Positions 26,041 to 50,204 of a stretch of 64,000 nt of DNA are shown here, one piece after another (position 1 is the stretch's first letter; every line of letters starts with the position of its first letter). The stretch comes from Candidatus Altiarchaeota archaeon (GTDB lineage: Archaea; Altiarchaeota; Altiarchaeia; IMC4; SCGC-AAA252-I15), in assembly GCA_043800705.1 (NCBI GenBank), contig JAZDMS010000003.1, forward strand, positions 1-64,000. Reading direction: 5' to 3'. Below the pieces are notes generated by a model that had not been told where the DNA came from, searched no databases, and saw only the letters and a list, made by a program, of their open reading frames with translations. Position numbers and translations under genes: made by a program.

Positions 26041-28428
26041 TTAAAGAGCATGTCTTTCGTATCCTCCCCTGACGACCTTCCTTATCTCCTTGGCTTTCTT
26101 CTCCCCGATGCCTTCGACCTCCTCTAACTCCTTCTCGTTGGCGGTGATGACGTCTTCGACGGACCCGAACCGCCTAAGGAGCCTGTCGGCCAATACTGCG
26201 GACACGTTGGGGAGGGATTCGACGACGAACCTCTGCCGCTCGTGCATCAGCCTCGGCTTCCTCTCGCCCCTTAGGGCCACCTCCCTGCAGTTTTCCTCCT
26301 GCTCGCGCCTGGCGATGGCGATGAGCATCTGAGCCGTGTCCTGCTCGTCTTCCGTCGGGATTATGGGGATGTTGAAGTTGACTGCGATGGCGGCTATGAG
26401 GCCCCTGACCGCGTTGGGGTGTATGTTTCGCTGGGTGTAAAGGCCGTCCAATCCCTCGATTATCAGTATCGGTATCTCGAAGTTGCGCCTCATCTCCGTG
26501 AGTTGGGCGAGGAGCCTCTTGTCGATGATGCTCTGCAGGAAGTCTTTCATGGTCTTCCTCTCGACACACACCCTCTCGGACAAGAGATAGTCGCCGACCG
26601 GCAGCTGTATGAGGTCCAGTTCGCATTTATCCCGAAGCGCGGACATTATCTCGCGGTTTCTCTCCCTTACGTCCACGATGACTTTAAGCCGCCTCGCCAT
26701 TTCCGAGTCTCCGGTCTCCGGTCTTCCGTCTTCGGTCTCCGGTCCCCGGTCTTCCGTCTTCGGTCTTCCGTCTTCGGAGTCTCCAGTCTCTTCGGTGTCT
26801 CCGGTCTTCGGTCCGCTGTCTTGCGAGTCTCCGGTCTTCAGTCTTCCGTCTTCATCAAGACTGAGGACTGAGGACTGAAAACCGGGGGCTGTGGACTGAA
26901 GACTGTCATATTCTCCAATCGTCTTTTGTTTCTTCAGCCCTCCCCTGAGGCCCCGTACGATGTCGCCCATCTTCCGCTCCTTGTGGTACGACGACCAGTA
27001 GTATGCCTCGTCCCGGGTGCCTTTGGCCATAAGGACGTAGACTTCGCCGGTCGCGCTCCTGCCGGTCCTGCCCCTGCGCTGTATGGTCCTTATCTCGGAA
27101 GGGACCGGCTCGTAGAATACGACGGCGTCGACCTTGGGTATGTCGAGGCCTTCCTCGGCGACGGAGGTCGCGACGAGGGCAGTATACTTTCCCTCCCTAA
27201 AATTCTCCAGGGCCCGGACCTGCTCCTTCTGGCTCATCCCGGACTTTTCCCCCCTGCTCGCCTGCCCTATGAACTCGTGGCAGAGGATGTCCGCTGCGTT
27301 CAATCTCTCGATTATCATGTCTACGCTGTCGCGGTACTGGGTGAATACGAGAACCTTCTTTCCCTTGCATCCTCCGACGATCCTGACGAGCTCGTCCAGT
27401 TTCGGGTGGTCGATTCCGGCCTTCCTGAGCCTTGCGGTCTCCGACATCGCCTTCATGATCTCGTAGCTGTGCATGAGCTTCCTCACCGCCTTGCTGCCCT
27501 GGCTCCTAAGGCGGCTGAAGTACTCGTCAAGCGCCCTGATACCCTGTGTCTCCAGGAGCTCTATGCCGTGGTTGACCTTCATCGCGGCAGCCGCGCAGGA
27601 TGCGGCCTGGAAGGCTTCGATGCCTTTGGATATGTCGACCCTGACTTGGGCCTGCGCCTGAAGGAGCAGCCTCTTGCTGACTTTGGACAAGTCCGAGGAC
27701 CCTATGTATCCGAAGCCTTTGAGCCTCTCAAGCTCTCCCTTTAGCGTCTTCTGCAGGAGCTTCTGTATCTCCCTGAAGTCCTGGGGCAGGTCGACCTTCG
27801 CCCATTTGATGTTGACCTCCTGGACATAGGGCTTCACGTCGGCGTCGAGGTCGGTCTTCGCCTCCACGCACCTGATGCCGAGGTTCTTGCAGATTTCCCC
27901 GACCTTGTCCTCCTCGCTGGAGGGGCTTGCGGTTAGTCCGAGCGTCATCGGGTTCTTCGCTTGTTTCAGGTATTCCCTGGCGATGGAGACGTAGCTGTAG
28001 TCGCCGACCGCCCTGTGTGCTTCGTCGAATATGGCGAGTGAGACGTCCTTGAGCGTCGTTCCGCGGACTATGTCGTTTTCGATGGTTTGGGGCGTCGCGA
28101 AGACGACCCTGCTTCCCATCCACATCTCGTGCCTCTTCTTCGGGGCGTCCGCGCCGGTGAGGACGCACATGTCCTCGACGTTCAAGAGCTCCCGGAACGT
28201 CTTCAGGTGCTGCAGCGCAAGCGGCTTGGTGGGGGCAAGAAGGAGCACCTTCGAGCCGGGGTAGGCATGGAGCCTGTGGGCGGCGACCATCGCCGCGATT
28301 ACGGTCTTCCCAAGGCCTGTGGGCAGGACCACCAACGTGTTTTCATCCACAGCGCGGGATATGACGCTCTCCTGGTAGCGGCGAAGCTCGAGCCTATCCC
28401 CGCGGACGAGCGGATGTTCGACGAACAT
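26041..28428 (-). CDS. hef: Hef helicase/ERCC4 nuclease
   Basis: LPTGLGKT, DEAH, TAS, QRRGRTGR; C-terminal VDVRE, GDY, VERKT and HhH; linker carries a heptamer insertion. Confidence 0.96.
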   Translation of the reverse strand: MFVEHPLVRGDRLELRRYQESVISRAVDENTLVVLPTGLGKTVIAAMVAAHRLHAYPGSKVLLLAPTKPLALQHLKTFRELLNVEDMCVLTGADAPKKRHEMWMGSRVVFATPQTIENDIVRGTTLKDVSLAIFDEAHRAVGDYSYVSIAREYLKQAKNPMTLGLTASPSSEEDKVGEICKNLGIRCVEAKTDLDADVKPYVQEVNIKWAKVDLPQDFREIQKLLQKTLKGELERLKGFGYIGSSDLSKVSKRLLLQAQAQVRVDISKGIEAFQAASCAAAAMKVNHGIELLETQGIRALDEYFSRLRSQGSKAVRKLMHSYEIMKAMSETARLRKAGIDHPKLDELVRIVGGCKGKKVLVFTQYRDSVDMIIERLNAADILCHEFIGQASRGEKSGMSQKEQVRALENFREGKYTALVATSVAEEGLDIPKVDAVVFYEPVPSEIRTIQRRGRTGRSATGEVYVLMAKGTRDEAYYWSSYHKERKMGDIVRGLRGGLKKQKTIGEYDSLQSTAPGFQSSVLSLDEDGRLKTGDSQDSGPKTGDTEETGDSEDGRPKTEDRGPETEDGRPETGDSEMARRLKVIVDVRERNREIMSALRDKCELDLIQLPVGDYLLSERVCVERKTMKDFLQSIIDKRLLAQLTEMRRNFEIPILIIEGLDGLYTQRNIHPNAVRGLIAAIAVNFNIPIIPTEDEQDTAQMLIAIARREQEENCREVALRGERKPRLMHERQRFVVESLPNVSAVLADRLLRRFGSVEDVITANEKELEEVEGIGEKKAKEIRKVVRGGYERHAL
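26707..26906. repeat. heptamer-built palindromic element inserted in frame in the hef linker
   Basis: GTCTYCS heptamer run, ATCAA centre, then a GACTGAG run; 26841-26884 is the exact reverse complement of 49819-49862. Confidence 0.92.
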
Positions 28429-28429
28429 G

Positions 28430-29761
28430 TTATCCTCTCACCCTCCAATGTCCGCCCTTGTCGGGGCCGACCCTCTTCAAGAGTTTTTTTTCTTTGAGTT
28501 TTTTTATGTTCTTGTATACTGCGACTTCGCTGATATCCAATTTTTTAGAGAGTTCCTCCGTCGTTATGCGGCCGTTTTGAGCGATTAATCTGATTATCTT
28601 AAGTTCATTTTCTCCTAACTTTTCTCCTAACTTTTCTCCTAACTTTCCTCCGGCCCTGTCTGCTTTAGCCATGCTTTTTCGCTTGAAAACTGTGATGAAC
28701 TGCGTTCCTATCTCTCTAAAATCTGCCGTAGGTTCCTTTGAGAGGATAAGGCTTATTCCTCTGCCCCATTTTTCTATGAGGTGAATCCTATGAAGCAACT
28801 CTGCAATGAGCTCGTTTCTCCTCTCTGATACCCTATCCCTCCTTATCGATTTGATTGTAAGTCCCCCATATAACAATCCGGGGCTTCTGATTTCAAGGCG
28901 ATCTCTGAATACTGCTATGTTCACAGAGTCGTATTTCCAGTAGTCTCTGTGACAGAATGCGTTGATTATCGCTTCCCTGACGGCCTCCTTATCAATCTCT
29001 GGAACATCTATGCGGGCAAGGCCTTCTATCCTCATCCCAACGTTAATTTTATCCATTATGTATTTCTGTGCCTGTTCGATTAGGGTGAGCAGGTCGCCTT
29101 CGTAGTCTTTCATATCCAACGGGAGTGATGAGTCATTGGTTGCGAAGACTGCGCACCGTAACCTTGCATTTGGGAAGAATTTCTGCGGCTTCTTCGCAAA
29201 CATCATCACCGCGGAATTGAGTAACTTTCCATCTCTTATGATGTCTAACTTTGTAAGGGAATTTCTGGTCGAATCATATCTGAGACCTGCTTGTTTGAGG
29301 AAGCTTCTCAGCTTCTTAGGGCTTATATCCTCTACTTTAGCCTTCTCGCACACTGAAGTGTCCCATGCCAGTTTGTACCTGTTCTTCTTCAATATCATGT
29401 TTTCGAGTTCTTTGGCGCTCAGCTGTCTGTCTTCATCCCCAACACGCATATATGACCGCCCGTGGGCATAGTAGGGGATATTGACACCTTTGAATTCGAC
29501 ATGGATGCAGTCTCTTCCACCCAGTTCAGTCTTGCTGATTTTGGGGTAAATCTTAGGTTCGATATTTTCAGAGATAGCCCGTGAGACGTCTCTCATACTC
29601 CGCTCGCCGACTGCCTGCCCAATAGCGGTTCCGTCATTTCTAACGCCGAAGAATAACTCACCCCTATGGTGCTTGTTCAGCATTGCCACAACCGAAATCA
29701 CAGCCTCTTTCAGCTCTGACGTCGACTTCTTCAATTCAAGCGTCTCGGACTCCATTAGCAT
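28430..29761 (-). CDS. Schlafen/AlbA_2 + HATPase-like + HTH protein (often annotated RecG-like or transcriptional regulator)
   Basis: ESETLELK, AMLN..GELFFGV.NDG, REAIINAFCHRDY, IEKWGRG, RVGPDKGGHW; lower GC than its neighbours. Confidence 0.9.
   Translation of the reverse strand: MLMESETLELKKSTSELKEAVISVVAMLNKHHRGELFFGVRNDGTAIGQAVGERSMRDVSRAISENIEPKIYPKISKTELGGRDCIHVEFKGVNIPYYAHGRSYMRVGDEDRQLSAKELENMILKKNRYKLAWDTSVCEKAKVEDISPKKLRSFLKQAGLRYDSTRNSLTKLDIIRDGKLLNSAVMMFAKKPQKFFPNARLRCAVFATNDSSLPLDMKDYEGDLLTLIEQAQKYIMDKINVGMRIEGLARIDVPEIDKEAVREAIINAFCHRDYWKYDSVNIAVFRDRLEIRSPGLLYGGLTIKSIRRDRVSERRNELIAELLHRIHLIEKWGRGISLILSKEPTADFREIGTQFITVFKRKSMAKADRAGGKLGEKLGEKLGENELKIIRLIAQNGRITTEELSKKLDISEVAVYKNIKKLKEKKLLKRVGPDKGGHWRVRG
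28608..28651. repeat. 12-bp coding tandem repeat (GEKL units)
   Basis: TTTTCTCCTAAC x3 plus a partial copy. Confidence 0.85.
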
Positions 29762-29817
29762 GATACAATATCACCTCCACACGCAATATAATCGGAAGAG
29801 AGCCCGGGAAAAGTAAA

Positions 29818-30797
29818 CTATGCAGGTTTATGTTTTGCCATCTCGTATCTGTCCCTTATCGTCCTTCTCGACTCTTCCAGATTTTCGCCCACCGCAAGGT
29901 TAGACCGTGCACCGTCCAGCACCTTCGAAGCGGCCCCATTGAATTGGTCCATCGTCAGGCTCGTCTCCACGAGCTTCATGAGCCTGTCATGGGCTCGCAC
30001 AGGAGGTAATCTTCATTTTTCCTCATGTGGTCGTAGACACGGTAACAGTTGGTGAGGACTTCGCTGAACCTGTCATTACACCTTTCGCGCTCCTGTCCTC
30101 TGATGTCCCTGAAGCAATTGACCACAAAGCTGTTCTTTGCGATCCTCTCAGCAAGCCTCTGCCAATCCCCGCGTTTCGCACCTTCAGGCTCGAAGCAGCA
30201 TAAATGGGCCAGCACTTCCCCCAACGCCCTGTCGGATCCCAGACGCGCGTTGATGAAAAGATCCCTCCTGTGCTTTCTCTCATGCCTGATTGCCTCATAA
30301 TCCAGCAGGTCGTTGACTATGATCACTCCCGCATATGCGAGCCTGCCCTGGTTCGGCGCTATGACCAATCCCGCACCCTCCAAACCATTGAGTTTTCCGG
30401 CGACATAGGTGAAATCAGGGCTTTTATACGCCCTTGTCCGGGTTCCTATCCTCATCCTGTCAGATTCGTCAAGCGGCTCAAAATCTCCGATAATCCTGCT
30501 CTCCCTGAAGTATACGGCTCCGTATTCTTCGCTGAACCTCGCATGCTCGAAGTCTGACGGATGAAAAAGGCCCCGATTGCCGGGTTCTATTCCGGCGTCC
30601 TCATTCAATCCCTCCGCAAGGAATGTCATTGCCTTCTGAGCCTGTGAGGCATCCTTCGAATTGAGGCCAGCTAATACGGAGTCGACTTCACGAATCCTCC
30701 CCTCCCTTTGCCTAACAGCCTTCAGGGTCGGCACATCGGCGATGTTCGCCTTCAGGGACTCCAGCTGCCTCAGGGAACCGTCCTTGACGACCTCCAT
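29818..30797 (-). pseudogene. hypothetical HExxH-motif protein, apparently split by a frameshift near 30000
   Basis: ORF 29976-30797 (RHERKH...GEVLAH) overlaps ORF 29818-30000, which continues in another frame. Confidence 0.45.
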
Positions 30798-30905
30798 ATG
30801 TAGAAACCTGGAATCTCCGGGTAAAAACCGAAGACGCCTCTGTTTTCGGCGTTTACCGAAAGGAAACCTGGACGTTTTTATTCGGAACCGCGACTTATCT
30901 GTACC

Positions 30906-31697
30906 ATGACAGAAGAAACCAAGTCTTGCGGATGCTCAACGAAGGTGTACCACGTATTTTTCGCGGTCTTGATGATCGCAGCGGTGGGAATACTGTGCAT
31001 GAACGCTAACAGGGAAGCAGTCCCGAAAATAGTGCAGATCGACTCGATGGGGCTGCAGAAGGACACAATCACCGTATCCGGCAATGCCCAGATCACGGTC
31101 GCCCCAGACGAGGCCATAGCCTACATAAGCGTCGTCACCGACAACGCCACTGCGAAAGACAGCCAGGAAAACAACCGGGTCGTCTCTGACGTAGTCATGT
31201 CCTCGCTGAAGGGCATCGGCATCAGCCCCGCAGACATAGAGACAGACTCGTACTCCCTCACCAAACTGGAGGAATACGACCAGGAATCCGGAAAATACCT
31301 AGAGCGCGGATTCAGGCTCACCAACACGATCAAAGTGACCACACGCGACATCAAGAATGTCGGGGGCATAGTCGATGCCGCAGTCGGCGCCGGAGCCAAC
31401 GGCGTCGACAGCGTGACGTTCCAGCTGACTAAGGAATCGGAGAAAACCGTCCGCGACCAGGCGATGGTGAAGGCCACACAGGCGGCCATGTCCAAGGCCC
31501 AGAGCCTCGCGAAGACCGCGGGAGTGGGAGTCGGCAAGGCGGTCAGCATCCAGGAGCAGAACTTCTACTACGCGCCGTACGAGTTCAACGTCAGGAACAC
31601 CATGGTCGCAGGGGACGCGAAGCTCGCCCCGACCGTGATATCCCCCCAGAAGGTGGAAGTCACATCAAGCGTGCAGCTGATATACGCCATCAAATAA
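30906..31697 (+). CDS. SIMPL/DUF541 domain protein
   Basis: TITVSGNAQITVAPD, GAGANGVDSVTF, AQSLAK, N-terminal TM helix. Confidence 0.92.
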   Translation: MTEETKSCGCSTKVYHVFFAVLMIAAVGILCMNANREAVPKIVQIDSMGLQKDTITVSGNAQITVAPDEAIAYISVVTDNATAKDSQENNRVVSDVVMSSLKGIGISPADIETDSYSLTKLEEYDQESGKYLERGFRLTNTIKVTTRDIKNVGGIVDAAVGAGANGVDSVTFQLTKESEKTVRDQAMVKATQAAMSKAQSLAKTAGVGVGKAVSIQEQNFYYAPYEFNVRNTMVAGDAKLAPTVISPQKVEVTSSVQLIYAIK

Positions 31698-31852
31698 CCG
31701 GCTCTGACAGTTGCCGCATCCGGAATGATGCGGCCTACGTTTTTATCCGGCCGGCTCCCCATTGTTAACATGGCGGTGAGGGAGCCTTTGCCGGTCATTC
31801 AGCGATTCTCTGTCGGATTGAGAGATTTTTAAGTCGTATTTCGGTGTATAAT

Positions 31853-32071
31853 ATGATGCGAAAGTACAAGGTTGTTTTGCAGCCGGATGAAGAAGGCGGG
31901 TATAATGTCGTGGTAGTGGGTCTTCCAGGCTGCTTTAGTCAGGGTGAAACGAAGAAGGAGGCGCTAGCGAATGCCCGCGAAGCCATAGAATGCCACCTTG
32001 CCGCATTGCAGGATTCGGGAGTAAACATCTCCAAAATACCGAAGGCCTGTTTGGGCGTTGTCTCAGTCTAA
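31853..32071 (+). CDS. hicB: HicB-family antitoxin
   Basis: EEGGY.V...LPGCFSQGET..EAL.NAREAI. Confidence 0.92.
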   Translation: MMRKYKVVLQPDEEGGYNVVVVGLPGCFSQGETKKEALANAREAIECHLAALQDSGVNISKIPKACLGVVSV

Positions 32072-32292
32072 TGAAACTTCCAGTTGTCTCTGGCGAATCG
32101 TTAATTAAATTCCTGACGCATCACGGTTTTATCGTTGTGCGCCAGCATGGAAGTCACGTCACACTCAAACGTGTCAATATGCCACATACGCATGTGACGG
32201 TGCCGCTGCACAATACACTCAAGAAGGGAACCTTATTGAACATACTCAATCAGGCTGAAATAGACAAAACAGAATTCACCAGTAAAATTTGA
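32071..32292 (+). CDS. hicA: HicA-family toxin
   Basis: GFIVVRQHGSH, VTVPLH..LKKGTL..IL; TAATG overlap with hicB. Confidence 0.92.
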   Translation: MKLPVVSGESLIKFLTHHGFIVVRQHGSHVTLKRVNMPHTHVTVPLHNTLKKGTLLNILNQAEIDKTEFTSKI

Positions 32293-32428
32293 CAAAAAAG
32301 GTTTCCTCCCCCTCGGAGCTCCCACATCTTCTCCTAGGCACGTATCCTAGAGCCGAAATTCACCCCAAGATAAAAGTGGTTAGTTTATATGCAAAATCCT
32401 TAAGACAATAAGGTATGCGGTGGGAATC

Positions 32429-32917
32429 ATGAAATGTCCATTGTGTAAGGCAAATCTGAATGAAAAAGACCTTTATAATAATGTCCAAAAAATTGGGGGA
32501 ATCAATGAATTAAAAAAATTAAGCACTCAAACCCAACCCGCAGATGAAGATGAGGTACTTCTAAAAGTAAAAGCAGCATCATCTTTCGCTTGGGTTTGTC
32601 CAAAATGTGATTCTATCATCACAATATCCTCTGATAGCGGTATGGGGGGCATGCCTGGTCCAGATATTCCTACTGGAGAAATTTCTGGATTAAACAAATG
32701 GGAGTACCTCCACTTTTTAGGCACCTTTCCGAATGTGGAGGGTATAAGGAAGGATAGACCAGATTATGAAGATAATGGGGACACACAATATTTAGACCAG
32801 TTAGGTGATGAGGGTTGGGAGTTAGCCTCAGTAGTGCCATTCACTAATCAGGGAATTGTTCTCAGACTGGGTTACTTCCTCAAGAGAAAAAAACTACCAA
32901 ATTTAGATTCACCTTGA
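32429..32917 (+). CDS. hypothetical protein: zinc ribbon plus DUF4177-like domain
   Basis: CPLC and CPKC; KWEY...LDQLGDEGWELASV; low GC. Confidence 0.7.
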   Translation: MKCPLCKANLNEKDLYNNVQKIGGINELKKLSTQTQPADEDEVLLKVKAASSFAWVCPKCDSIITISSDSGMGGMPGPDIPTGEISGLNKWEYLHFLGTFPNVEGIRKDRPDYEDNGDTQYLDQLGDEGWELASVVPFTNQGIVLRLGYFLKRKKLPNLDSP

Positions 32918-33056
32918 AAGGAAGTATTTCGTCGTAACTGTTTAGTTTTCTGTAATGGCTTGATGAGGGCTTTCTAATGCATTTTATGGCATTATTCCCA
33001 AAAGGTATTGGTGAGGATTGGTTTGCCTTTGGCCAAAATTTTTGATAATAAGGTAG

Positions 33057-33932
33057 TCATTTTGAACCCAATGTACTAACAACCCATCTTTTGAAGGTCG
33101 TTTCTATACTGTCTTCTAATTTTGTCCCTTCAACTTTGAATATCATTTGGTGGGTTGTTTTGTCACTTCTGTTGGTTTTGGGTTCAGCTATCATATCTGC
33201 CTTTATGATAATCCTATAAGACTCGTTTGAGACGTATGGAGGGCACATTGCCTCCACCATTATGAGTTCTTTTGGGGGAATAATTTCATCTCCGGTTGGA
33301 GACAAAATTCTTGGATTTTGGCATTCCCGGTTTTCTTTCGAGATACTGATATTCTTAAAGGAAAGATAAGAGTCCGGAATATTTCGCCAACTCATATTAT
33401 CTGGAGAATAACCTAAATAAACAACATTTATGTGCATCGATTGTGCCAAATTTCCATCCGGATTATAACCCAGTAAGCCTGTTGAATTATAAAAAAAGTT
33501 AGATAATCCGGCTTTGAATGAACCATTTTTTTCGTAATACTCAAAAACATTCGGCTGATCCTCAGCCATCGATCCAGGTAAATAATAGCTCCCCGATCCA
33601 TTCAGTGCCCAGTCGAATCTAGGTGCTGGATCATAGACCGGAATCGAATTCCAATATTGTACCATATCCGGGATGTAGAAGAATAGACATATACAAAAAA
33701 ATTGAACCACAGCTAGTGTCCGACCGCAGATGAAAAATTTAGATTTCTCCTCAGTTTTTTCCTTTTTTCGAGGCCTGAAATAGAGCGCCGGTAGGCCCAA
33801 ACCTAGGATGAAGTTAAATGGAAAATAATCAGCAAAAGCATGTGTTATTATAGAAACAACTATTGACCCAGATATAATCTCATAGAGGTGCAGGCCATAT
33901 TCTTTAGAATTCCACCTATCAATAACTTCCAT
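33057..33932 (-). CDS. hypothetical membrane protein (transposon passenger)
   Basis: 291-aa AT-rich ORF with N-terminal TM helices. Confidence 0.7.
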   Translation of the reverse strand: MEVIDRWNSKEYGLHLYEIISGSIVVSIITHAFADYFPFNFILGLGLPALYFRPRKKEKTEEKSKFFICGRTLAVVQFFCICLFFYIPDMVQYWNSIPVYDPAPRFDWALNGSGSYYLPGSMAEDQPNVFEYYEKNGSFKAGLSNFFYNSTGLLGYNPDGNLAQSMHINVVYLGYSPDNMSWRNIPDSYLSFKNISISKENRECQNPRILSPTGDEIIPPKELIMVEAMCPPYVSNESYRIIIKADMIAEPKTNRSDKTTHQMIFKVEGTKLEDSIETTFKRWVVSTLGSK

Positions 33933-34005
33933 CCTATACTTTATTGGTCCACATAAAGATAAAACTGGGTTCGTGAGTGCCTACTTCAGAAAAGTCACCA
34001 GCAGA

Positions 34006-35034: not shown

Positions 35035-35041
35035 GCTCTCC

Positions 35042-35338: not shown

Positions 35339-35392
35339 AATAACTACTCCGAATGATGAGGATATAAATACGCAAGTCAATAAGGAACTGTC

Positions 35393-35749: not shown

Positions 35750-35819
35750 GCTCCCTCCAATAATCAAAAAGAGCGGACTATAGCTACTCGCTATTTTCAT
35801 TCATCCTAGAGTCTCTTTC

Positions 35820-36755: not shown

Positions 36756-36768
36756 TTATTATTAATAT

Positions 36769-41735: not shown

Positions 41736-41768
41736 ACCTAATATAATCGCGCCGGTCATAATTAACAT

Positions 41769-42266
41769 ATGCGCTCACTGGTCGTCGGCCGCTTCCAGCC
41801 CCTGCACCTCGGCCATCTGAGGATGATCGAGCATGTGGCGGAGGAATCGAAGCACCTGGTCATAGGCATCGGAAGCAGCAACAGGGAACCGTCGGCGGAT
41901 AATCCGTTCACCGCGGGAGAGCGGGAGGAGATGTTTCAGGGCTCGCTGAAAAGCGGGAAAAAATTCGAACTCGTCCCGATTCCCGACTTCGGAGACGATG
42001 AAAAATGGATCGCGTGGATAAAAGAAAACATAGAATTCGACGTCTTCTGGACCAACAGCCCCAACGAGCGGAGGATATTCGAGGAGGCGGGCTGCAAGGT
42101 GAATCACATCCCGTTCTTCGACAGGGACGAATACTCCGCCACAGAGGTGAGGCGCAGGATGATGGAAGGCGGCGACTGGGAGAGGCTCGTGCCTGCAGGC
42201 ACCGCGAAGGTCATCGAACGGTTGGGCGGCGGTCAGCGGCTGAGGAGCCTCTCAAACGGCGGTTGA
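41769..42266 (+). CDS. nadM: nicotinamide-nucleotide adenylyltransferase
   Basis: GRFQPLHLGH, NPFTAGER, SATEVR. Confidence 0.93.
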   Translation: MRSLVVGRFQPLHLGHLRMIEHVAEESKHLVIGIGSSNREPSADNPFTAGEREEMFQGSLKSGKKFELVPIPDFGDDEKWIAWIKENIEFDVFWTNSPNERRIFEEAGCKVNHIPFFDRDEYSATEVRRRMMEGGDWERLVPAGTAKVIERLGGGQRLRSLSNGG

Positions 42267-42296
42267 ATTATAAGCCGCAGACGGCGATATGTAATC

Positions 42297-44492
42297 ATGT
42301 CCTTCCCCTATCGCAGCGGGAAAATAGGGTGCATAAGCCTCGTCTTCAGCGTCTTCTCCTTCCTTCTGATATCATACCTCCTATATGACCCCTACGGGTG
42401 GCTTGTCGGGCTCATCCTGACAGGCGGCGTATGGTGGCGGACGCTCATGGTCGTGCCCATCGCATCCTTCCTGATGGGCGCCTACACCCTTTTCGTAACA
42501 GACACGCCGAAGAAGGTATCCTTGGCTTCTTTCATCCTGAGCGCATCATCCGGCTATCTTGGACGGAGCGCCTATGTGCCTCTCGTATTCTTCTTCATCG
42601 CCTTGATAGTCCTCTCCAAAAAAGTCCTATTCGAGAGGCCTGGGCAATCACCGATATATTGGGCCACGATATCCTATCTCTCCATCTTTCTCGTGGCCGT
42701 ACTTTCCGTGCCGATGGACTATTTATGGCGGCAAGCGAGATACATGAACCCGAGCGAGGTCGTCAGCGAATTCCTCCTCAGGATCATCTTTACCATCGCC
42801 CCGTTGGCCTACCTCATGAGCGCATTCACCATCCTAAGGAGCCTATCGGAGCTTGTCCGCCAGCGGAAGGCTCAGACCGTCCTAGCCCTCGTCCTCTGCA
42901 CTGTCGCGCTCCTGGTGATGACAGGATTCGCTGTATCGTACCTGTTTTCGCCGTATGGTCCGCCTCCGGGCGTCCCTGGCTATTGCGTCTCATATGGGAA
43001 CGTCTCCTGCTTCCATGACAATCTGATATCGCGAGGCGGAGACGTGTATCTCTCCATAAAAAACGACATGGGATATGACATCTCATTGACGGGCGAAGCT
43101 GATGCGGCAGGCTCATGCAAGGGGATAAAACTGGAATCCCTCAATGACGGGGGTTTCCCCGCTGACCTCCAATATGTCAAAGGCTACGGGGGGTGGGGCA
43201 TCCTGAGGTTCAAATGCGGAAGCCTCAATGACGATTATTTCAAAAGCAACATCACCCTCTCCTACATGAACAAATCCGACGGAAGCCGGTCGAAGGCCGT
43301 CCTATCGCTGGTCGGCCGCGCTTCCGACGAGAAGCCGAACACCAAGCCGGCGATAGACCAGTATTATTCGGATGTCGCGGATTATACCGGCATATCCACC
43401 TTATGCACTTCCATCGACGACCTGAAAAAGCAGGGCTCTTGCGTGAAGAAGCATGCAAAGACGGGGGATGAATGCAAAAACGCCATCGACGTCCCCTCAA
43501 AGGAGGATTGTCTCCTCAACGTCGCCAAAAAAATCGGGAACGTCTCCCTCTGCTACGGAATATACCGCCCGAACATGATGGACAAGTGTTTCCTCAACGT
43601 GGGGACGGCGCGCAATGACGTATCCGCATGCAGAAGGATAAGCGACCAGTCGATGCTCTCCTCTTGCCTTGGAACAGTGGCTGCCGCCAGGGAAGATGTT
43701 GGCACATGCGTCGGCGACTACCCAGAATGGATGAGTCAGGCCTGCATACTCGGGGTCGCGCAAATAACGAAAAACGCCACCTTATGCGCTCAGATAAAGG
43801 ATGCGCTCAGGAAAGACGGCTGCCTCTCTCAGTCATTCGTCGCAGAAGGGGATTTCAGGCGATGCCAGGAGCTTCAGGCGCCGCAGAACCGCCAATATTG
43901 CACCCTGGAGATAGCGAAAAAGACGCAGAATATCAGCCTCTGCGGTCTTATGTCCGATCAAGCGGCCAAAGACGACTGCCTATACAAGGTGAACGAGGCC
44001 GTCCCCGCCAAAGATGGGACTGCTGCGGAATCGTGCGGCGATATCCAGGATGCGCGGCTGAGGGACAAGTGCTATCTGAGGGAATGGGTGAGGACAAAAG
44101 ACCCCGGAATATGCGGGAAGATATATTCGGGCGGGGAAAAGTGGGAGTGCGTGCAGGCCCAAAAACCGGGGGACCTGGGCATCGGCCTCTGCATGCAAAT
44201 CCCGGAAATCTACGTCCCCCTCACAGAGCCGTACTGCGGAAACTGCCAGCAGGACAAGGGCTGGGTACAGGCCCGCTGCATAATCCAGGTCGCCAAGAAC
44301 GCCAAAGACATAGGCATATGCGGCCTCATAAGGGTCGGGTCCGACTGGGCTGAAATCAAGAACGACGAATGCGTCACGGAGGTGGCGAAGTCGACGAGGG
44401 ACCTGACGCTCTGCAAGAAGGTGACGGAGGGATGGAGCAGGAACAACTGCCAGACCGACGTCCTCATAGAGATAAGAAGGCGGGGATCCTGA
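42297..44492 (+). CDS. membrane-anchored protein with extracellular Cys-rich repeats
   Basis: N-terminal TM bundle followed by many C..I......D.C...VA repeats. Confidence 0.8.
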   Translation: MSFPYRSGKIGCISLVFSVFSFLLISYLLYDPYGWLVGLILTGGVWWRTLMVVPIASFLMGAYTLFVTDTPKKVSLASFILSASSGYLGRSAYVPLVFFFIALIVLSKKVLFERPGQSPIYWATISYLSIFLVAVLSVPMDYLWRQARYMNPSEVVSEFLLRIIFTIAPLAYLMSAFTILRSLSELVRQRKAQTVLALVLCTVALLVMTGFAVSYLFSPYGPPPGVPGYCVSYGNVSCFHDNLISRGGDVYLSIKNDMGYDISLTGEADAAGSCKGIKLESLNDGGFPADLQYVKGYGGWGILRFKCGSLNDDYFKSNITLSYMNKSDGSRSKAVLSLVGRASDEKPNTKPAIDQYYSDVADYTGISTLCTSIDDLKKQGSCVKKHAKTGDECKNAIDVPSKEDCLLNVAKKIGNVSLCYGIYRPNMMDKCFLNVGTARNDVSACRRISDQSMLSSCLGTVAAAREDVGTCVGDYPEWMSQACILGVAQITKNATLCAQIKDALRKDGCLSQSFVAEGDFRRCQELQAPQNRQYCTLEIAKKTQNISLCGLMSDQAAKDDCLYKVNEAVPAKDGTAAESCGDIQDARLRDKCYLREWVRTKDPGICGKIYSGGEKWECVQAQKPGDLGIGLCMQIPEIYVPLTEPYCGNCQQDKGWVQARCIIQVAKNAKDIGICGLIRVGSDWAEIKNDECVTEVAKSTRDLTLCKKVTEGWSRNNCQTDVLIEIRRRGS

Positions 44493-44517
44493 GCTCACAT
44501 CAGCCTTTGGGTGTCCC

Positions 44518-44790
44518 CTATCTCCTGTAGATTTTATCGTGGTGGTCGAAGTCGTAGAAGATGATTTTATCCTCTGGTACGACGTATCTGAATGTCAGCA
44601 CAAACGGGCCGTTGACATGTACTCTTTTTAGGTGTTGGAGGGGCTTCTTAAGGTTCTTGTAGTGGTTGATGTCATTACAGGATAGGATCTCATCGATTTT
44701 GGCCATGATAGCCTCATATGTCCTCTTGTCTTTCTTCTGGAGTCTGATCAGTATCCTCTTTAGGTCGTCCTCAAGGGAGAATTCACGCAT
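44518..44790 (-). CDS. RelE/ParE-superfamily toxin
   Basis: HYKNLKKPL..LKRVHV..FVLTF...FDHHDKIY. Confidence 0.85.
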   Translation of the reverse strand: MREFSLEDDLKRILIRLQKKDKRTYEAIMAKIDEILSCNDINHYKNLKKPLQHLKRVHVNGPFVLTFRYVVPEDKIIFYDFDHHDKIYRR

Positions 44791-45028
44791 CCTCTATCTC
44801 CTTCCTCAATTCCTCCAGACTCTTGTAGCTTTTAAATTTACCGCTAGCTTCTATTTTCCTGATTTTCTCGATATATTCCGGCCTAAGCTCCGGCTCAAGA
44901 AAATTCTCCTCGTATTCGTTCACAACCAGATTAATCGCCTGGGACTTGTCTTTTAGGCCGTATTTCGCCTTTACTATGTTCAGAATCCTATTGACGTGGT
45001 CGTCGATGTTAATCACCGCTTGAACCAT
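44783..45028 (-). CDS. antitoxin (DUF2683-like)
   Basis: MVQAVINI...NRILNIVKAKYGLKDKSQAI...EPELRPEY; overlaps the toxin gene. Confidence 0.85.
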   Translation of the reverse strand: MVQAVINIDDHVNRILNIVKAKYGLKDKSQAINLVVNEYEENFLEPELRPEYIEKIRKIEASGKFKSYKSLEELRKEIEDA

Positions 45029-45074
45029 GTTACATCACATATATGCCTATGTATGCCGTATATATAAGCATATA

Positions 45075-45728
45075 TTATGCCAGCCCTAGTCCGTCCTCTA
45101 TCCTCTGCAGCTCTATGGGTGTCGTCTTCGACCCGGTGATGTAGCCGTTTCCGTTGGCTAAGAGGCCTGATTTCACGTACGGTATTCCGCAGTTGACTGT
45201 CCCCACCATGCCCTTGCATCCCAGTATGCCGTCGAGCTCCTTCAGCTGGTGTTCGGCGTCCGGGTGGGCGATATAGCCCTTGTTCGTCGCCATCACATAT
45301 GCTCCGACTTCGATGCGGCCTGCGATGTCGCCGGTGACGACCTCGACCCCAAGCACGTCCTCGATGGCCTTGTAGTCCCTGGTGAGGACACTGGAGACGT
45401 AGGCCTTTTTGTCGTTCACGGCCATCATGTTCCCCATTGCCGTGTAGTTGTCCCTGACCTTCAGGACCTCCACGCCGAGCGGCTTCATGAAATTGACGAC
45501 CGTATCATACTCCATGTCGGAGACGAAGTAGGGCACGAGGATGCCGTTTGAGTTGCCTGTGCAGAACATGCCGACGAGGTTCGTGCTGTAGGATTTCGCC
45601 TTGAGGGTCGGCACCCCGAGTATGCTCTCCTCTTCGAAGTCGGGGGAAACGAACGCGTATTTGTCCGTGGCGAATCCGAGCAGGCCTATGAAATCCTCCC
45701 CCCTTATGTTGACTTGTTCCGCTATCAT
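45075..45728 (-). CDS. eif6: translation initiation factor 6 (aIF6)
   Basis: GNSNGILVP, MGNMMAVND, GTVNCGIPYVKSGLLAN, TTPIELQRIE. Confidence 0.93.
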   Translation of the reverse strand: MIAEQVNIRGEDFIGLLGFATDKYAFVSPDFEEESILGVPTLKAKSYSTNLVGMFCTGNSNGILVPYFVSDMEYDTVVNFMKPLGVEVLKVRDNYTAMGNMMAVNDKKAYVSSVLTRDYKAIEDVLGVEVVTGDIAGRIEVGAYVMATNKGYIAHPDAEHQLKELDGILGCKGMVGTVNCGIPYVKSGLLANGNGYITGSKTTPIELQRIEDGLGLA

Positions 45729-45733
45729 CCCGT

Positions 45734-46156
45734 TCACCTTATGTAGCTCGTGTCCGACTCCTTCTCGTTGAGGCTCACCTGGGGCATCGGGATCGGCGAG
45801 GGAAGCTTCACGTCCCTGGCAAGGAAGCTCGCCTCGACTATGCAGTTCGTCAGTATGGTATTGTGGATGGACTCCGCCATCTCCTTCGGCAGCTTGGTTT
45901 TCCCGCTCTTTTCCCACTCGCCGAGGGCCTTCTCTATGTTCTCCGGGGATTCGTCCACCGTCAGGTCCCCCTCTATCCTTATGATCCCGATGTTCGGCTC
46001 ATAGGTGGAGCTGAAGACGAACCCTATGCTGAGCTTGTCCCCCTCCTTCGAGGCGGCGACTATCGTGGAGTTGTTGTTGATGTTGACCTGGCTTCTGACC
46101 ATGCCGATCCTCCTTGCGTCCAGGTTCTTGAAGGTTATGTTGAAGTTCATCATCAT
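45734..46156 (-). CDS. conserved archaeal hypothetical protein
   Basis: Beta-rich ORF (F.F...YEP.IG.I.IEG, LPSPIPMP) co-oriented with aIF6. Confidence 0.75.
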   Translation of the reverse strand: MMMNFNITFKNLDARRIGMVRSQVNINNNSTIVAASKEGDKLSIGFVFSSTYEPNIGIIRIEGDLTVDESPENIEKALGEWEKSGKTKLPKEMAESIHNTILTNCIVEASFLARDVKLPSPIPMPQVSLNEKESDTSYIR

Positions 46157-46199
46157 GTTGTATTATAACTGGGTAACCTTATATAACATCGGTTTAAAA

Positions 46200-46613
46200 A
46201 TGCTAGTTGTGGCAACTGGGGTCTTCGAGATCCTGCATCCGGGCCATCTGAAGTACCTGGAGGAGTCCAAGAAGCTCGGCAGCCGCCTCGTCGTCGTCGT
46301 CGCAGCTGACGAGACGGCGACGAAGAGGAAACGGAGGCCCGTCATCTCGGAGCGCCAGCGCCTGCACATGGTGAAGGCGCTCAAACCGGTAGACGACGCG
46401 ATAGTCGGCGAAGACGGCGACATCTACGACACGATCGTCAGGCTCAACCCCGGAATCCTCACGATCGGGCCCGACCAGGACTTCGACCCCAAGGAGGTGG
46501 AGGCGAAGCTTCATGAGCGCGGCCTGAAGACGAAGGTCGTGAAGATCAGGCACTACTGGGACGCGGGCCTGCACTCATCGAGGATAATAGTTGACCTCAT
46601 AAAAAGACAATGA
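46200..46613 (+). CDS. ribL: FAD synthase (archaeal cytidylyltransferase-like)
   Basis: ATGVFEILHPGH, LKPVD, GPDQ, SSRII. Confidence 0.85.
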   Translation: MLVVATGVFEILHPGHLKYLEESKKLGSRLVVVVAADETATKRKRRPVISERQRLHMVKALKPVDDAIVGEDGDIYDTIVRLNPGILTIGPDQDFDPKEVEAKLHERGLKTKVVKIRHYWDAGLHSSRIIVDLIKRQ

Positions 46614-46972
46614 ATTCGGCCAATTTCCTGAAAGGCAGGCGGAGCCTGAACGTCTTACTCGTCGTCGCCTGGATGGCTGTGATATTCATGGGGTCGTCCA
46701 TCCAAAAAGAGGACATGCAGCCCCAGTTCAGTCCGGTTGCCAAGGTCGGGCACCTGATGGAGTACGCGGTCCTCGGATTCCTTGCGTTCCCGCTCGCCGG
46801 CCAGTCGAAGAGGCCGCTTCTGTCCTGCGTCATTTTCTGCGCCGCCTACGCGGCCTCCGACGAGTTCCATCAGCTCTTCGTCCCAGGCCGCCACGGCACG
46901 CCCGTGGACGTATTGATCGACGCCGTCGGGGCGGTGATAGGCTCTTCTTTGTCCTGGAGGCTGATGGGATGA
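46610..46972 (+). CDS. VanZ-family membrane protein
   Basis: KVGHLMEYAVLG, DEFHQLFVPGR, DVLID. Confidence 0.9.
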   Translation: MNSANFLKGRRSLNVLLVVAWMAVIFMGSSIQKEDMQPQFSPVAKVGHLMEYAVLGFLAFPLAGQSKRPLLSCVIFCAAYAASDEFHQLFVPGRHGTPVDVLIDAVGAVIGSSLSWRLMG

Positions 46973-47967
46973 AGTTCCTCAAGGTGAAGAAGGAGAGGGC
47001 CCAGGAATTCCGCAGGAAGATACTGGCGGCAGGCGTCCTTGACGGTTCGGCGTCGGTCGAGCGGGAGGGCGAACACGTATTTTTCCCCGTGACATCCGAT
47101 CCGAAGATCAGGGGCGCCGCATTGGTGGAACGGGAGGGCAAGCGAAGGCAGCGGAGGCCGAGGTCGATGAAGGATGCGCTTAAGGGCATCCTCACCTGCG
47201 GGGAGATGGAGAGCCTGCAGAGCTCGTACAACGTCGTCGGAGACATAGCGATACTCGAGTTCGATGAGGAACTCCTCCCCAAGAGCGGACAGATAGGGGG
47301 GGCGATGCTGGAGACGTTCCATAACATCAAGGTCGTCGCGTTGAAGACCGAACAGGTCTCAGGCGAATACAGGGTTCCCGGAATCAAGGTCTTAGCGGGA
47401 GATAACAGGACCGAGACCATCCACAAGGAACACGGCTGCGTCTACAAGCTGGACGTAGCCGAGGCATACTTCAGCCCGAGGCTCGGACACGAGCGCCTCA
47501 GGGTCGTAGAACAGATAAGGGACGGGGAGCGGGTCCTCGTCATGTTCGCAGGCGTCGGCCCATATGCGGTGCTGGCTGCGAAGATGCGCAAATGCGAGCT
47601 CACGGCCGTAGAACTCAACCCCAAAGCGGTCGAATACATGCGGTGGAACGTCCTTAGGAACAAGGTCAAAGTCGACGTAATAGAAGGCGATGCGAAGGCC
47701 GTCCTCCCGACGCTTGGAAAGTTCGACAGGATCATAATGCCCTTGCCGAAGCAGGCAGACACATTCCTCAAGGTCACGCTGCCCGCCCTCAAGGCCGGGG
47801 GGATGATCCACTACTACACATTCGCCCACAACAGCCTCGAAGCCACAGGCCACCTCGCCGAGACCGTTGCCACCCTAGGTGGGAGGATCAGGGTCGAAGA
47901 CGCAGTGGAATGCGGAAGCTACAGCCCCTGCATGGCCAGGTACTGCGTGGACTTCACTTTACAGTAA
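46969..47967 (+). CDS. trm5: tRNA (guanine37-N1)-methyltransferase Trm5/Taw22 family
   Basis: VGDIAI, TIHKEHGC, YFSPRL..ER, MFAGVGPY, ELNP, DRIIMPLP. Confidence 0.9.
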   Translation: MKFLKVKKERAQEFRRKILAAGVLDGSASVEREGEHVFFPVTSDPKIRGAALVEREGKRRQRRPRSMKDALKGILTCGEMESLQSSYNVVGDIAILEFDEELLPKSGQIGGAMLETFHNIKVVALKTEQVSGEYRVPGIKVLAGDNRTETIHKEHGCVYKLDVAEAYFSPRLGHERLRVVEQIRDGERVLVMFAGVGPYAVLAAKMRKCELTAVELNPKAVEYMRWNVLRNKVKVDVIEGDAKAVLPTLGKFDRIIMPLPKQADTFLKVTLPALKAGGMIHYYTFAHNSLEATGHLAETVATLGGRIRVEDAVECGSYSPCMARYCVDFTLQ

Positions 47968-47972
47968 TACCA

Positions 47973-49325
47973 CTATCTATTGTGCTGCTGCCTCTTGATG
48001 TCATATGCATCGCGGAGCATTTTTTGAAGTATTAAATACTCGATTCGCCCTGATGGATATGCTCTCTGCTGTTTGAGCATTCCGTCTATTACCGCCTGCT
48101 TTTCCGTCTTGGTGGTATCAGTCCATTCCCTATGAAGGGGGTGCTTGAAGAACCTCGGCCACTCATCAGACATGTAAAAGCCGAGCACTTGTCCTTCGTG
48201 AAAAATCCTGAACAATCCCTTATAGACGTCGAAAACCATCGGCTTCTCGCGCTCCACCAGTATCGCCTCATCGGCGGACCTGATCAGGGCTGCAAGGTCC
48301 GAAACCGCCGCTCCGCCCCCGGTCTTCTGAGCCTCAGCCATCCGCCACCTGGTGTGCTCCATCTCCCCCAGGTCCGCAGGATTACAAACCCCCTTAGATT
48401 TCACGTAGAATCCCGGCTTCACATCTACCGCTCCATTCTTCAAGTACATGTAACCGGTTTCAGACTCCCCATCAATTTTAACGAAAACACCCCCCCTGAA
48501 ATTGCTGGTGTCGGGGTATTCCGCCTCCTTTCCATCATGTCCCTCAGCCCAATAGACAAGAGATTCTATTGGGCCTCCGTATGGGATCTTAATATTAGCC
48601 GCCATCTGCTTCATGGTTTCTACGGCAGCTCTTTCCTCCTCGTCTGTCGGGCCTCTCCACTTGGGGAAAATCCCGCCGGTGGATATTTTTATCTCCGTCT
48701 TGGGGGTCGTATGAACGTCTTTTTTGAATGTTACCCTGTATCTTACCCCATTTTTCGGTGTTGGCAACATCAACGCTCCTGTTTCATGTTCGTAGGTCTG
48801 TTCCTCAGCGGGCGCCGAACCCAGGGGCCTTCGAAGCAGTGCCACAACCCGCTTCCAGTCACGTCTTTTAGCAGCCGTCCTCTTTTTCCCGTCATCCACT
48901 TCGATGGCTTCTATTATGTCCTGCAGTGCCATAGAGGATGTGTTCAATGTGGCGGACGCCTTTTGGCCGCCAGGCAACTTGAATGCGAGGCGCTTTTTTT
49001 CATGGTCATAGTCGATTCCCAGCTCACGGTATATATCCGTTCTTGTAGTCGCGATCCGACTCATCAATTTGGGCAATCTATCGGAGGGCATATCCCCCCA
49101 AAGGATACCTTCACGCTCGACGACTAGGCCTTTATGCTTATCCTCCAGTTTCCGCACTGCGAAATAGTCTATCTCCCTTTTCATCGCCTTCCATTCTCTA
49201 TCTCGGCATATCCTAATAAATAGCCTACCATCCGGCCTCAGGGTCGGCATCTTCCGGATGGGAAGAGGGCGCAGTCTACTGCCAGCGAGCGACAAACGGC
49301 CCTTGAGGCTTTTATCAGGGGGCAT
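47973..49325 (-). CDS. hypothetical protein
   Basis: 450-aa ORF with no recognised motif; start uncertain. Confidence 0.65.
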   Translation of the reverse strand: MPPDKSLKGRLSLAGSRLRPLPIRKMPTLRPDGRLFIRICRDREWKAMKREIDYFAVRKLEDKHKGLVVEREGILWGDMPSDRLPKLMSRIATTRTDIYRELGIDYDHEKKRLAFKLPGGQKASATLNTSSMALQDIIEAIEVDDGKKRTAAKRRDWKRVVALLRRPLGSAPAEEQTYEHETGALMLPTPKNGVRYRVTFKKDVHTTPKTEIKISTGGIFPKWRGPTDEEERAAVETMKQMAANIKIPYGGPIESLVYWAEGHDGKEAEYPDTSNFRGGVFVKIDGESETGYMYLKNGAVDVKPGFYVKSKGVCNPADLGEMEHTRWRMAEAQKTGGGAAVSDLAALIRSADEAILVEREKPMVFDVYKGLFRIFHEGQVLGFYMSDEWPRFFKHPLHREWTDTTKTEKQAVIDGMLKQQRAYPSGRIEYLILQKMLRDAYDIKRQQHNR

Positions 49326-49340
49326 AGTATATCATAAACT

Positions 49341-50204
49341 ATGGACTACGAAATCCCCCTCCTAGCTGCGGTAGACCGCGGCTCAGGGTGGATGAGCTTC
49401 AGGTTCGGCATCCCGGAAGGCTACTCGTTCAAGGCGGGGCAGTTCGCGATGTGGCGCCTCGGGGAGGGGCTCATGAAGCCGTTCACGATCAGCAATTCCC
49501 CGACCGAGGGGGGATTCCTGGAGTTCACGACGAAGATGTCCGGCTCGGACTACAAGAAAAGGCTCTCGGCCCTCAGGCCGGGCGACAAGGTCAGGCTGTC
49601 GCAGCCTTTGGGCAAGTTCACGTACCTCGGCCAGAAGAAGATGGCGTTCCTGGCGGGCGGCGTCGGCATCACCCCCTTCCGGAGCATCATCAGATACCTG
49701 TCCGACACAGGGGCCGACTGTGACGTGATCCTCGTCTGGGGGGTCAGGTCGATGGATGAGGCGGTGTTCAGGGACGAATTCGAAAGTCTACAGTCCTCAG
49801 TCTACAGTCCTCAGTCTACGGTTTTCAGTCCTCAGTCCTCAGTCTTGATGAAGACGGAAGACCGAAGACGGAAGACCGAGGACGGGAGACCGAAGACGGA
49901 AGACCGGGGGCCGGAGACCGCAGACCGCAGACCGCAGACCGGGGACAGGGGGCCGGGGACTGAAGACTTCCAAAATGGCCGAAGACTGAAGACCGTATAC
50001 GTTCCGACTAATCCGCCAGCGGGATGGGCCGGCAGGAGCGGGTTCATCGATGTGGCATGCATCGCCGAAGAGGTCCCGGATTACGCCGGCCGCGTCTTCT
50101 ACGTGTGCGGGCCGCCGAAGATGGTGGAGGCCATGACGAAGGTCCTCTCGGAGCTGGGGATAACGGGCGAAAGGCTGGTCGTCGAACAGTTCAGCGGATA
50201 TTGA
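49341..50204 (+). CDS. ferredoxin-NADP reductase-like FAD/NAD-binding oxidoreductase with an in-frame repeat insertion
   Basis: FKAGQF, PFTISNSP, LAGGVGITPF, YVCGPPKMV, EQFSGY. Confidence 0.92.
   Translation: MDYEIPLLAAVDRGSGWMSFRFGIPEGYSFKAGQFAMWRLGEGLMKPFTISNSPTEGGFLEFTTKMSGSDYKKRLSALRPGDKVRLSQPLGKFTYLGQKKMAFLAGGVGITPFRSIIRYLSDTGADCDVILVWGVRSMDEAVFRDEFESLQSSVYSPQSTVFSPQSSVLMKTEDRRRKTEDGRPKTEDRGPETADRRPQTGDRGPGTEDFQNGRRLKTVYVPTNPPAGWAGRSGFIDVACIAEEVPDYAGRVFYVCGPPKMVEAMTKVLSELGITGERLVVEQFSGY
49785..49995. repeat. heptamer-built palindromic element inserted in frame in the oxidoreductase
   Basis: AGTCYWC run, TTGAT centre, then a GAAGACS/GCAGACC run. Confidence 0.92.

Follow-up and report, generated by a model that had tools for sequence, protein, structure and literature searches.

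The stretch analysed here, referred to as the window, is 64,000 nucleotides long and corresponds to positions 1-64000 of contig C12 (C12:1-64000) of G000, a metagenome-assembled genome of a Candidatus Altiarchaeota archaeon (2.0 Mb in 43 contigs, 87.6% complete). Two unrelated genes in the window carry an in-frame insert built of tandem 7-bp units (heptamers) that are arranged as a palindrome. The gene hef (26041..28428, minus strand) encodes a protein of 795 aa with DEAD/Helicase_C, ERCC4 and HhH domains (Pfam). Its insert (26707..26906, minus strand), detected with Tandem Repeats Finder (TRF) and with Pfam domains on either side, covers aa 508-574 and lies in the helicase-nuclease linker, between Helicase_C (343-458) and ERCC4 (585-702). 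The second gene (49341..50204, plus strand) encodes an FNR-like FAD/NAD-binding oxidoreductase of 287 aa (Pfam), and the sister copy within its NAD_binding_1 domain (49785..49995, plus strand) splits the Pfam match in two. Both inserts are gene-less members of a repeat family that elsewhere in the same genome brackets a gene for an intervening-sequence protein (IVP), and both are lineage-specific. We consider it near certain that the family and its insertions into genes are real.

Arrays of period 7 and period 14 were found with TRF at 26702-26905 and 49785-49960, in agreement with an earlier note, made from the sequence alone, that had described about 200 bp of heptamers in each gene. As read on the plus strand, the Hef copy consists of a (GGTCTTC)-type arm (26707-26853) and then a (GACTGAG)-type arm (26860-26905), with the centre located near 26851-26864. 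The FNR copy consists of a left arm (49785-49845, plus strand) and a right arm (49850-49962, plus strand) with the centre TCTTGATGAAG between them, followed by a non-periodic end module and then two further units (49963-49995, plus strand). The centre of the element is AGTCTTGATGAAGAC. An identical core of 44 bp occurs exactly twice in the window with 0 mismatches, at 26841..26884 on the minus strand within the Hef copy and as an exact string match at 49819..49862 on the plus strand within the FNR copy, and none of 100 shuffles (0/100) produced such a match. The core is carried by the coding strand in hef and FNR alike and is read in different frames. The peptides GFQSSVLSLDEDGR and VFSPQSSVLMKTED, as well as the common EDGRPKTEDRGPET, are present in the Hef and FNR translations. 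The earlier note had thus correctly given the orientation, the peptides and the centre, and its view that conservation lies at the level of DNA and not of protein is borne out by the same 44 bp being read in different frames. Along the whole element the two copies are each other's best match (80% identity over 178 bp), and the likeness between copies ends at the element boundaries. The strings AAATGGC and RRLK, common to the right ends of both copies, were rejected as two unrelated coincidences, the DNA match because the frames differ between Hef and FNR, and the peptide match because the codons differ and the peptide is native in orthologues.

The Hef insert is absent in all of the 19 aligned relatives (19/19), and in FNR a clean block of 59 aa is absent in 5/5 orthologues. 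Similar blocks in a methionyl-tRNA synthetase (MetRS, ~40 aa) and in an asparagine-synthase-like protein (AsnS-like, ~67 aa) are each absent in 5/5 relatives, and these relatives include G017, a genome that carries the repeat family elsewhere. Judged from these alignments, the Hef, FNR, MetRS and AsnS-like inserts are lineage-specific. The whole Hef linker of G000 is taken up by the element. In the linker, immediately ahead of the nuclease domain, all 19 relatives (L002-L020) keep the motif GQQS(L/I)xx(Y/F), and G000 is without it. This motif resembles the consensus of the PCNA-interacting box (PIP-box), and the Hef linker has a PCNA-binding role. At the position where a congener has GFGQQSLFQY, the element encodes GFQSSVLSL, whether by coincidence or not. 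Another kind of in-frame selfish insert was seen within the Hef family, as the homologues P0034 and P0096 (~1,260-1,280 aa) contain the intein-type domains PF14528 and PF14890.

The whole assembly was scanned for arms, taken as four or more ACNG words that follow one another with period 7, and 72 arms were identified in G000 vs 6 in a shuffled genome. The arms merge into 46 loci, which amount to 5,050 bp altogether and share the architecture 5'-(RGTYYTC)n-(GARRACY)m-3', often without a spacer between the two arrays. The polarity is fixed: a CNGT-type arm stands directly before an ACNG-type arm in 17 loci, and the opposite order is clear at one place only (C20:16042-16152). Arm length ranges from 3 to 25 units, and the outer ends are frequently AGT... 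and ...ACT, followed by T or A. The element proposed in the earlier note is found at 46 loci, its inserts are missing from the orthologues of both proteins, and both host genes are intact to the left and right of their copies. The longest identical strings between loci measure 45 bp (C12:76827 / C20:11305) and 44 bp (Hef / FNR), vs a null maximum of 39 bp in 40 trials in which units were shuffled within loci, and five locus pairs have at least 30 bp in common vs a null mean of 0.65. A direct duplication of ~185 bp at C23:3952-4190 contains heptamer arrays together with a non-periodic end module (ACTTCCAA...); the same module ends the FNR copy on the right and was seen too at C25:70300-70330.

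An open frame no shorter than 150 aa, which extends 40 aa or more beyond the locus in both directions, runs through eighteen of the loci. Sixteen of these frames were tested, and 12 of the 16 contain Pfam domains. The first batch (9/10) comprises Hef, the FNR-like protein, a tetrapyrrole methylase, a ferredoxin, a GNAT protein, the Asn-synthase-like protein, a PRMT-like methyltransferase, an HD protein and MetRS, and the second (3/6) a metallophosphoesterase, an HhH-GPD glycosylase and TatD. Because three units of 7 nt make up seven codons, the encoded peptides are alike in all hosts, one arm being Ser-rich (QSSVLS, FSVSSS) and the other charged (TEDGRPK, TENRKPK). The earlier note had called the element mostly stop-free. 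This holds only in part, and not for the elements in general: a mean of 2.26 of the 6 frames per element are open vs 1.22 of 6 in composition shuffles, with only one open frame in the Hef copy (1/6), namely the used one, and two in the FNR copy (2/6). The open in-gene copies are best read as survivors of selection. As they are kept in frame, they are presumably translated and not cut out.

The four-helix-bundle/Avd-like partner, which the earlier note had suggested as a lead, was found outside the window. It is the product of the single IVP gene of G000 (C1:22662-23024, 120 aa), which matches Pfam 23S_rRNA_IVP (PF05635, E 1.4e-17) and NCBIfam TIGR02436, 'four helix bundle protein' (E 1.3e-17), and has 2rld as its nearest solved structure (E 3.4e-5). 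The open reading frame (ORF) is enclosed by the largest element cluster (C1:22189-22577) and by an element at 23043-23124, so that a short left arm precedes it and a right arm ending CTGGAAACTT comes after its stop codon. The gene-less elements next to it have the same ends, and deletion of the ORF from this IVP cassette would yield exactly the polarity of the gene-less copies. Immediately upstream of the IVP gene, five gene-less palindromes follow one another head to tail, each ending CTGGAAACTT, and one more lies downstream. The cluster as a whole (C1:22189-23124) has an aminoacyl-tRNA synthetase gene (tRNA-synt_1b) on one side and an unknown ORF on the other; the genes that neighbour IVP in G000 encode an aminoacyl-tRNA synthetase, a DUF2085 protein and GatB. 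The 23S rRNA gene (C14:127059-129583) is collinear with positions 16-2662 of a model of 2987, where the contig ends, and no intervening sequence (IVS) was met in this assembled part of the gene; the elements of G000 are located in protein genes and intergenic DNA.

Going by the names of its Hef homologues, the organism belongs to the Altiarchaeales. Among the 49 genomes of the order, PF05635 was found in five, including both genomes that carry arrays of five units and of four units, G000 and G017 (2/49). G017 is from a different genus within the family of G000, and four other species of the genus of G000 are without arrays. The arrays of G017 have the architecture and polarity seen in G000, and its IVP gene is flanked by the same units as in G000. 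In G017 a second module, a short GC-rich hairpin (a C run, a few bases, a G run and then A-rich sequence), is often attached to the arrays (loci L165, L166 and L175), which suggests composite elements. The IVP gene of G019, of a more bacterial type, stands between inverted arrays built from another unit, CTAACNN, which is dispersed on at least 14 contigs of that genome, with 0 occurrences in four other genomes searched. In G024, a masked stretch of 100 N was seen between heptamer-like ends (L188, G024:C1), ~250-360 bp upstream of the IVP gene. Outside the order, the four-unit GARRACY pattern was found on at least 120 contigs from many bacterial phyla, including Acidobacteriota, Planctomycetota, Bacteroidota, Chloroflexota and Cyanobacteria, and also on 79 viral contigs. 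Some of the bacterial matches form inverted pairs whose arms are separated by 20-400 bp.

The association between IVP genes and heptamers is not restricted to the archaeon. Four of five array-bearing bacterial genomes hold 7-10 IVP genes each, vs any in 1/14 control genomes. At 32 IVP loci from those bacterial and the archaeal genomes, strong period-7 runs were detected upstream of 10 and downstream of 16, and 0 runs were detected in control windows 540-800 bp away. Since the genomes of this set had been picked for their arrays, IVP loci were also drawn by protein similarity alone, from metagenomes. From at least 598 matches to an Acidobacteria-type IVP profile the best 80 were taken, and 69 of these loci had 150 bp or more of flank on both sides. 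A period-7 run was found upstream in 53/69 loci, downstream in 58/69 and on both sides in 48/69, and in 44 of those 48 two-sided loci the units upstream and downstream are reverse complements of each other (at least 6/7). Control windows 400-600 bp away gave 4/69 upstream and 3/65 downstream. At a stricter score of 10, period 7 was found at 44 loci upstream and 40 downstream, and periods 5, 6, 8 and 9 at 0-2 loci per side. The heptamer units vary widely among the metagenomic loci, and the two arms within a locus stay complementary. In bacteria and in archaea alike, IVP genes are usually preceded by one arm and followed by an inverted one.

Dispersed gene-less arrays matched the flank unit of a resident IVP gene in all three genomes tested. 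Dispersal of such units was also observed in an Acidobacteriota genome, G052, where two different IVP genes have units that were found in 334 and 148 windows, both mostly as -/+ pairs 40-100 bp apart. The unit with 148 windows was found in that genome only among five searched. Different unit families can adjoin each other: at L197 (G052:C84), a gene-less palindrome of yet another heptamer (2657-2739) lies ~850 bp from an IVP cassette. In the literature, searched mostly outside subscription journals, heptamers were noted for the Coxiella IVS only; no general rule linking IVP to heptamers and no description of in-frame coding copies in archaea were found there.

Besides the copies in hef and FNR, both of which are real, the window contains further copies that the earlier note had overlooked. 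An intergenic copy at 2145..2265 (no strand assigned) takes up the stretch from stop codon to stop codon between two convergent ORFs, an unknown ORF (1819-2145, plus strand) and one of the aspartate-semialdehyde dehydrogenase type (2260-3273, minus strand). A mini-array of four units (16295..16319, minus strand) lies in frame in a TatD-type DNase gene (15800-16600, minus strand) and encodes ...TENRKL.... A short GTCTTCA run of 4.4 copies (17573..17603, no strand assigned) was detected by TRF, and an array of five units is found at 18520..18551 on the minus strand. Further along the contig, the intergenic copy C12:76827-77107 exactly spans the stop-to-stop gap between a transglutaminase-like gene and a tRNA-intron endonuclease gene, which are convergent. 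Copies placed between convergent stop codons, such as this one and that at 2145-2265, might serve as transcript ends in both directions. A 12-bp tandem repeat (28608-28651, 3.7 copies, 96% matches) in the ORF 28430-29761 (minus strand) encodes GEKLGEKLGEKLGE and bears no relation to the heptamer family.

The IVP gene of G000 stands between the same arms, in the same order, as are found in the gene-less copies, which is the layout of an IVS, and we therefore read the inserts as ORF-less derivatives of an IVS-type element. In our judgement it is probable that they are gene-less miniatures of such a cassette, which were copied, resized by slippage and kept in genes if the frame was open. New copies would arise by copy-and-paste to new sites, perhaps seeded at unit-like microhomologies. 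This could involve host recombination, template switching or an IVP-dependent step. Each arm would then grow and shrink independently by slippage, and a copy within a gene would survive only if its length and unit variants left the frame open. A surviving copy would add to the protein a Ser-rich stretch and then a charged, probably disordered one (QSSVLS... then TEDGRPK/TENRKPK...).

Among the closest known systems is the IVS of Coxiella and Leptospira. In Coxiella, the 23S rRNA contains an IVS that is described as selfish and has an S23p ORF, a 28-bp terminal stem that is cut by RNase III, and 2-3 tandem GACAGAT heptamers upstream of the ORF, whose number varies between strains (PMC4990558). 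Such elements are sporadically distributed and have been regarded as selfish for decades, their route of movement being unknown (PMC4990558). IVP are relatives of Avd (PMC10053308), and IVP genes have been noted between cas genes (PMC3936711). Our family resembles the IVS in the gene family (PF05635/TIGR02436) and in the placement of an ORF between stem-forming terminal inverted repeats, as the arms bracket the IVP ORF in G000. Unlike the IVS, which sits in rRNA, the copies described here are without an ORF, number dozens and lie within protein genes or in intergenic DNA. The in-gene copies are kept in frame, and an RNase III gene (PF14622) was not found in G000, G017, G019, G001 or G003.

Rickettsia palindromic elements are fixed sequences of ~100-150 bp that lie in frame in unrelated genes of bacterial endosymbionts, and we know of no IVP gene associated with them. 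As in our family, a palindromic repeat within unrelated genes is tolerated as an extra peptide segment. The likeness is one of behaviour only: those elements are fixed sequences, the copies here are arrays of 7-bp units, and to our knowledge the two have no sequence relation. Cyanobacterial short tandemly repeated repetitive sequences (STRR) consist of tandem 7-bp units, and the head-to-tail 7-bp units of variable length that TRF detected here (period 7/14) have the same traits. Heptameric repeats such as GGGAATC of Xanthomonas are over-represented in many bacteria, are little studied and have no known cause (PMC4692102). The TAACTGA repeats of Beggiatoaceae, Cyanobacteria and Bacteroidetes are horizontally patchy with 'no mechanism evident', and a post-transcriptional role has been proposed for them (PMC4679880). 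These bacterial families share with ours the tandem 7-bp unit, in many cases with an ACTG core, a patchy distribution with suspected horizontal spread and, as occasionally reported, inverted pairs. They differ in being mainly intergenic direct repeats, and palindromes, in-frame copies or a link to IVP are not described in the available parts of those papers.

Several systems that have no heptamers are also similar in part. The MITEs, or miniature inverted-repeat transposable elements, are short, multi-copy and gene-less, have inverted ends and a longer gene-bearing relative, and can expand in a genome-specific burst; inverted arms in many copies were found here at the 46 loci. Unlike in MITEs, no target-site duplication was seen, the gene-bearing relative encodes an IVP and no known transposase, and the arms are internally repetitive and variable in length. 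Repetitive extragenic palindromes and bacterial interspersed mosaic elements (REP/BIME) with their RAYT are likewise dispersed palindromes, often between convergent genes, but no Y1/HUH transposase was found in G000 or G017, and the units here are tandem heptamers. The tandem repeats of Borgs create disordered protein regions (PMC9879509); they too are archaeal and arise quickly, adding disordered segments to proteins, but are direct repeats, whereas ours form a dispersed family of palindromic arrays with a 7-bp unit. PARCELs encode a 25-residue amphipathic domain in surface proteins from dyad-symmetric DNA and have a patchy distribution suggestive of horizontal transfer (PMC2996958). They share with our family the coding repeat, the dyad symmetry and the patchiness, and differ as a protein domain of surface proteins does from a 7-bp unit in housekeeping enzymes.

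A number of observations count against a derivation of the inserts from an IVS-type cassette. The arms of one element are unequal, e.g. 25 vs 11 units and 8 vs 23, and are not mirror copies. The long hairpin described in the earlier note is generic, as folding energy at 17 loci was not better than with the units of one arm shuffled (z -1.8 to +1.9); a conserved specific stem in the gene-less copies was dropped after the same one-arm shuffle, in which the arms proved not to be mirrored. The element may be mobile, as the note had proposed, yet no target duplication, near-identical empty allele or enzyme was found. Target-site duplications were not visible at the inspected junctions (FNR, AsnS-like, MetRS and the listed outer ends), and the flanks extend the palindrome (GAAGT...ACTTC) where a direct repeat would be expected. 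A near-identical relative that could show the empty site was not found among 5.8 billion proteins, in which the best non-self Hef homologue reached 68%. RVT_1 is absent in G000 and G017 (of five genomes searched only G019 matched), so that these two genomes lack the combination of Avd and reverse transcriptase of a diversity-generating retroelement. Y1_Tnp (PF01797) is absent in G000, G017, G001, G003 and G009, with 6/14 control genomes positive, and the HUH/RAYT or reverse transcriptase partner that had been suggested is accordingly missing from G000 and G017. The TnpB TNB domain was not found in five genomes searched, G000 and G017 included, other transposase families being outside the search. 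All absences in G000 are provisional because the genome is 87.6% complete. We know of no catalytic activity of IVP; Avd is a pentamer. The link between arrays and IVP genes is also incomplete. G053 contains 363 windows of one G052 unit and has no PF05635 match, an IVP homologue was found at 3/120 array loci of genome contigs (each time beside the array) and at 0/79 viral array loci, and most arrays are not next to an IVP gene. In G024, the IVP gene has a weak upstream run of the G000 unit type and no four-unit GARRACY array was found genome-wide, and in G008 no period-7 run was detected alongside the IVP gene.

Given the lack of a target duplication, the unmirrored arms and unit-like strings that are already present at the FNR and Hef sites in orthologues, growth in place remains a live rival, even if we think it unlikely. 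According to this explanation, no element ever changed its place, and the arrays expanded like microsatellites from unit-like native seeds by slippage and a strand switch, aided by gene conversion, and their likeness is due to convergence and to that conversion. There is room for such growth, as the FNR site of L023 has a string one base short of two units and three Hef linkers of orthologues contain GCCGAAGA(T/G); no transposase of the families searched was found, and heptamers are in excess in many bacteria with no known cause (PMC4692102). It is difficult to reconcile with an identical 44 bp that covers the non-periodic centre and a distinctive order of units, a length that 0/40 unit shuffles reached. 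Fixed polarity (17 loci vs 1-2), recurring end motifs (AGT... ...ACTT) and the presence of 46 loci in G000 vs none in four congeneric species also argue against it, as does the match of arrays to IVP-gene arms in three archaeal genomes and in two unit families of one bacterial genome. An artefact of assembly, by which a collapsed or chimeric repeat would lie behind the common core, could be imagined for a metagenome-assembled genome of 43 contigs, the more so as contigs of a related population break at the array. Over 25500-28500, the sediment metagenome X1 contains fragments of a relative, mostly less than 95% alike, and many of its short contigs pile up on the Hef array (summed depth 366 at 26712-26812), where they end without bridging the insert. 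We nevertheless find an artefact scarcely credible: to either side of the insert, hef and FNR remain collinear with their orthologues, joining the inverted cores falsely would exchange gene halves, and outside the core the likeness of the two copies is only 80%.

The arrays could also be binding sites of IVP and not parasites, a regulon in which IVP recognises its own heptamer and controls transcripts or DNA with the cognate hairpin, its own gene included, and the coding copies are by-products. That each IVP gene has its own unit, with arrays of this unit dispersed in the same genome, would suit such a role, as would the intergenic copies exactly between convergent stop codons (2145-2265; C12:76827-77107) and the post-transcriptional role proposed for TAACTGA repeats (PMC4679880). 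Nonetheless the regulon leaves the origin of sites at new places unexplained, at least 12 copies are within conserved enzymes, where a regulatory site is unexpected, and G053 has arrays without an IVP match; we judge it improbable. We disfavour still more clearly, as very improbable, the explanation that the inserts are selected flexible linkers whose likeness in DNA is secondary. The hydrophilic peptides in linker or loops and the EDGRPKTEDRGPET common to Hef and FNR are what such selection might leave, but the two genes read the 44-bp core in different frames, the same units are also found between genes and on either strand, and the Hef insert displaces a motif that is kept in 19/19 relatives. 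A derivation from an IVS-type cassette remains the reading that we favour.

The behaviour known from Rickettsia is now found in an archaeon with a quite different element, which reaches MetRS, Hef, TatD and the AsnS-like protein. The link that we describe has three parts: inverted arrays bracket IVP genes, the unit is particular to each IVP gene, and the genome that holds the gene also contains scattered gene-less arrays that match it. In this way it joins two puzzles, the excess of heptamers (PMC4692102, PMC4679880) and the movement of the IVS (PMC4990558). More tentatively, and as less likely than not, we propose that a widespread class of cassettes, so far overlooked in bacteria and archaea, is marked by IVP/Avd-like proteins, which may also lend it sequence specificity. 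Each such cassette would lie between inverted arrays of a heptamer of its own, and its gene-less palindromic derivatives would multiply in genomes. If true, this would account for the excess and the patchy distribution of heptamers such as STRR, TAACTGA and GGGAATC, and it would mean that in this archaeon the gene-less derivatives remodel proteins by in-frame insertion.

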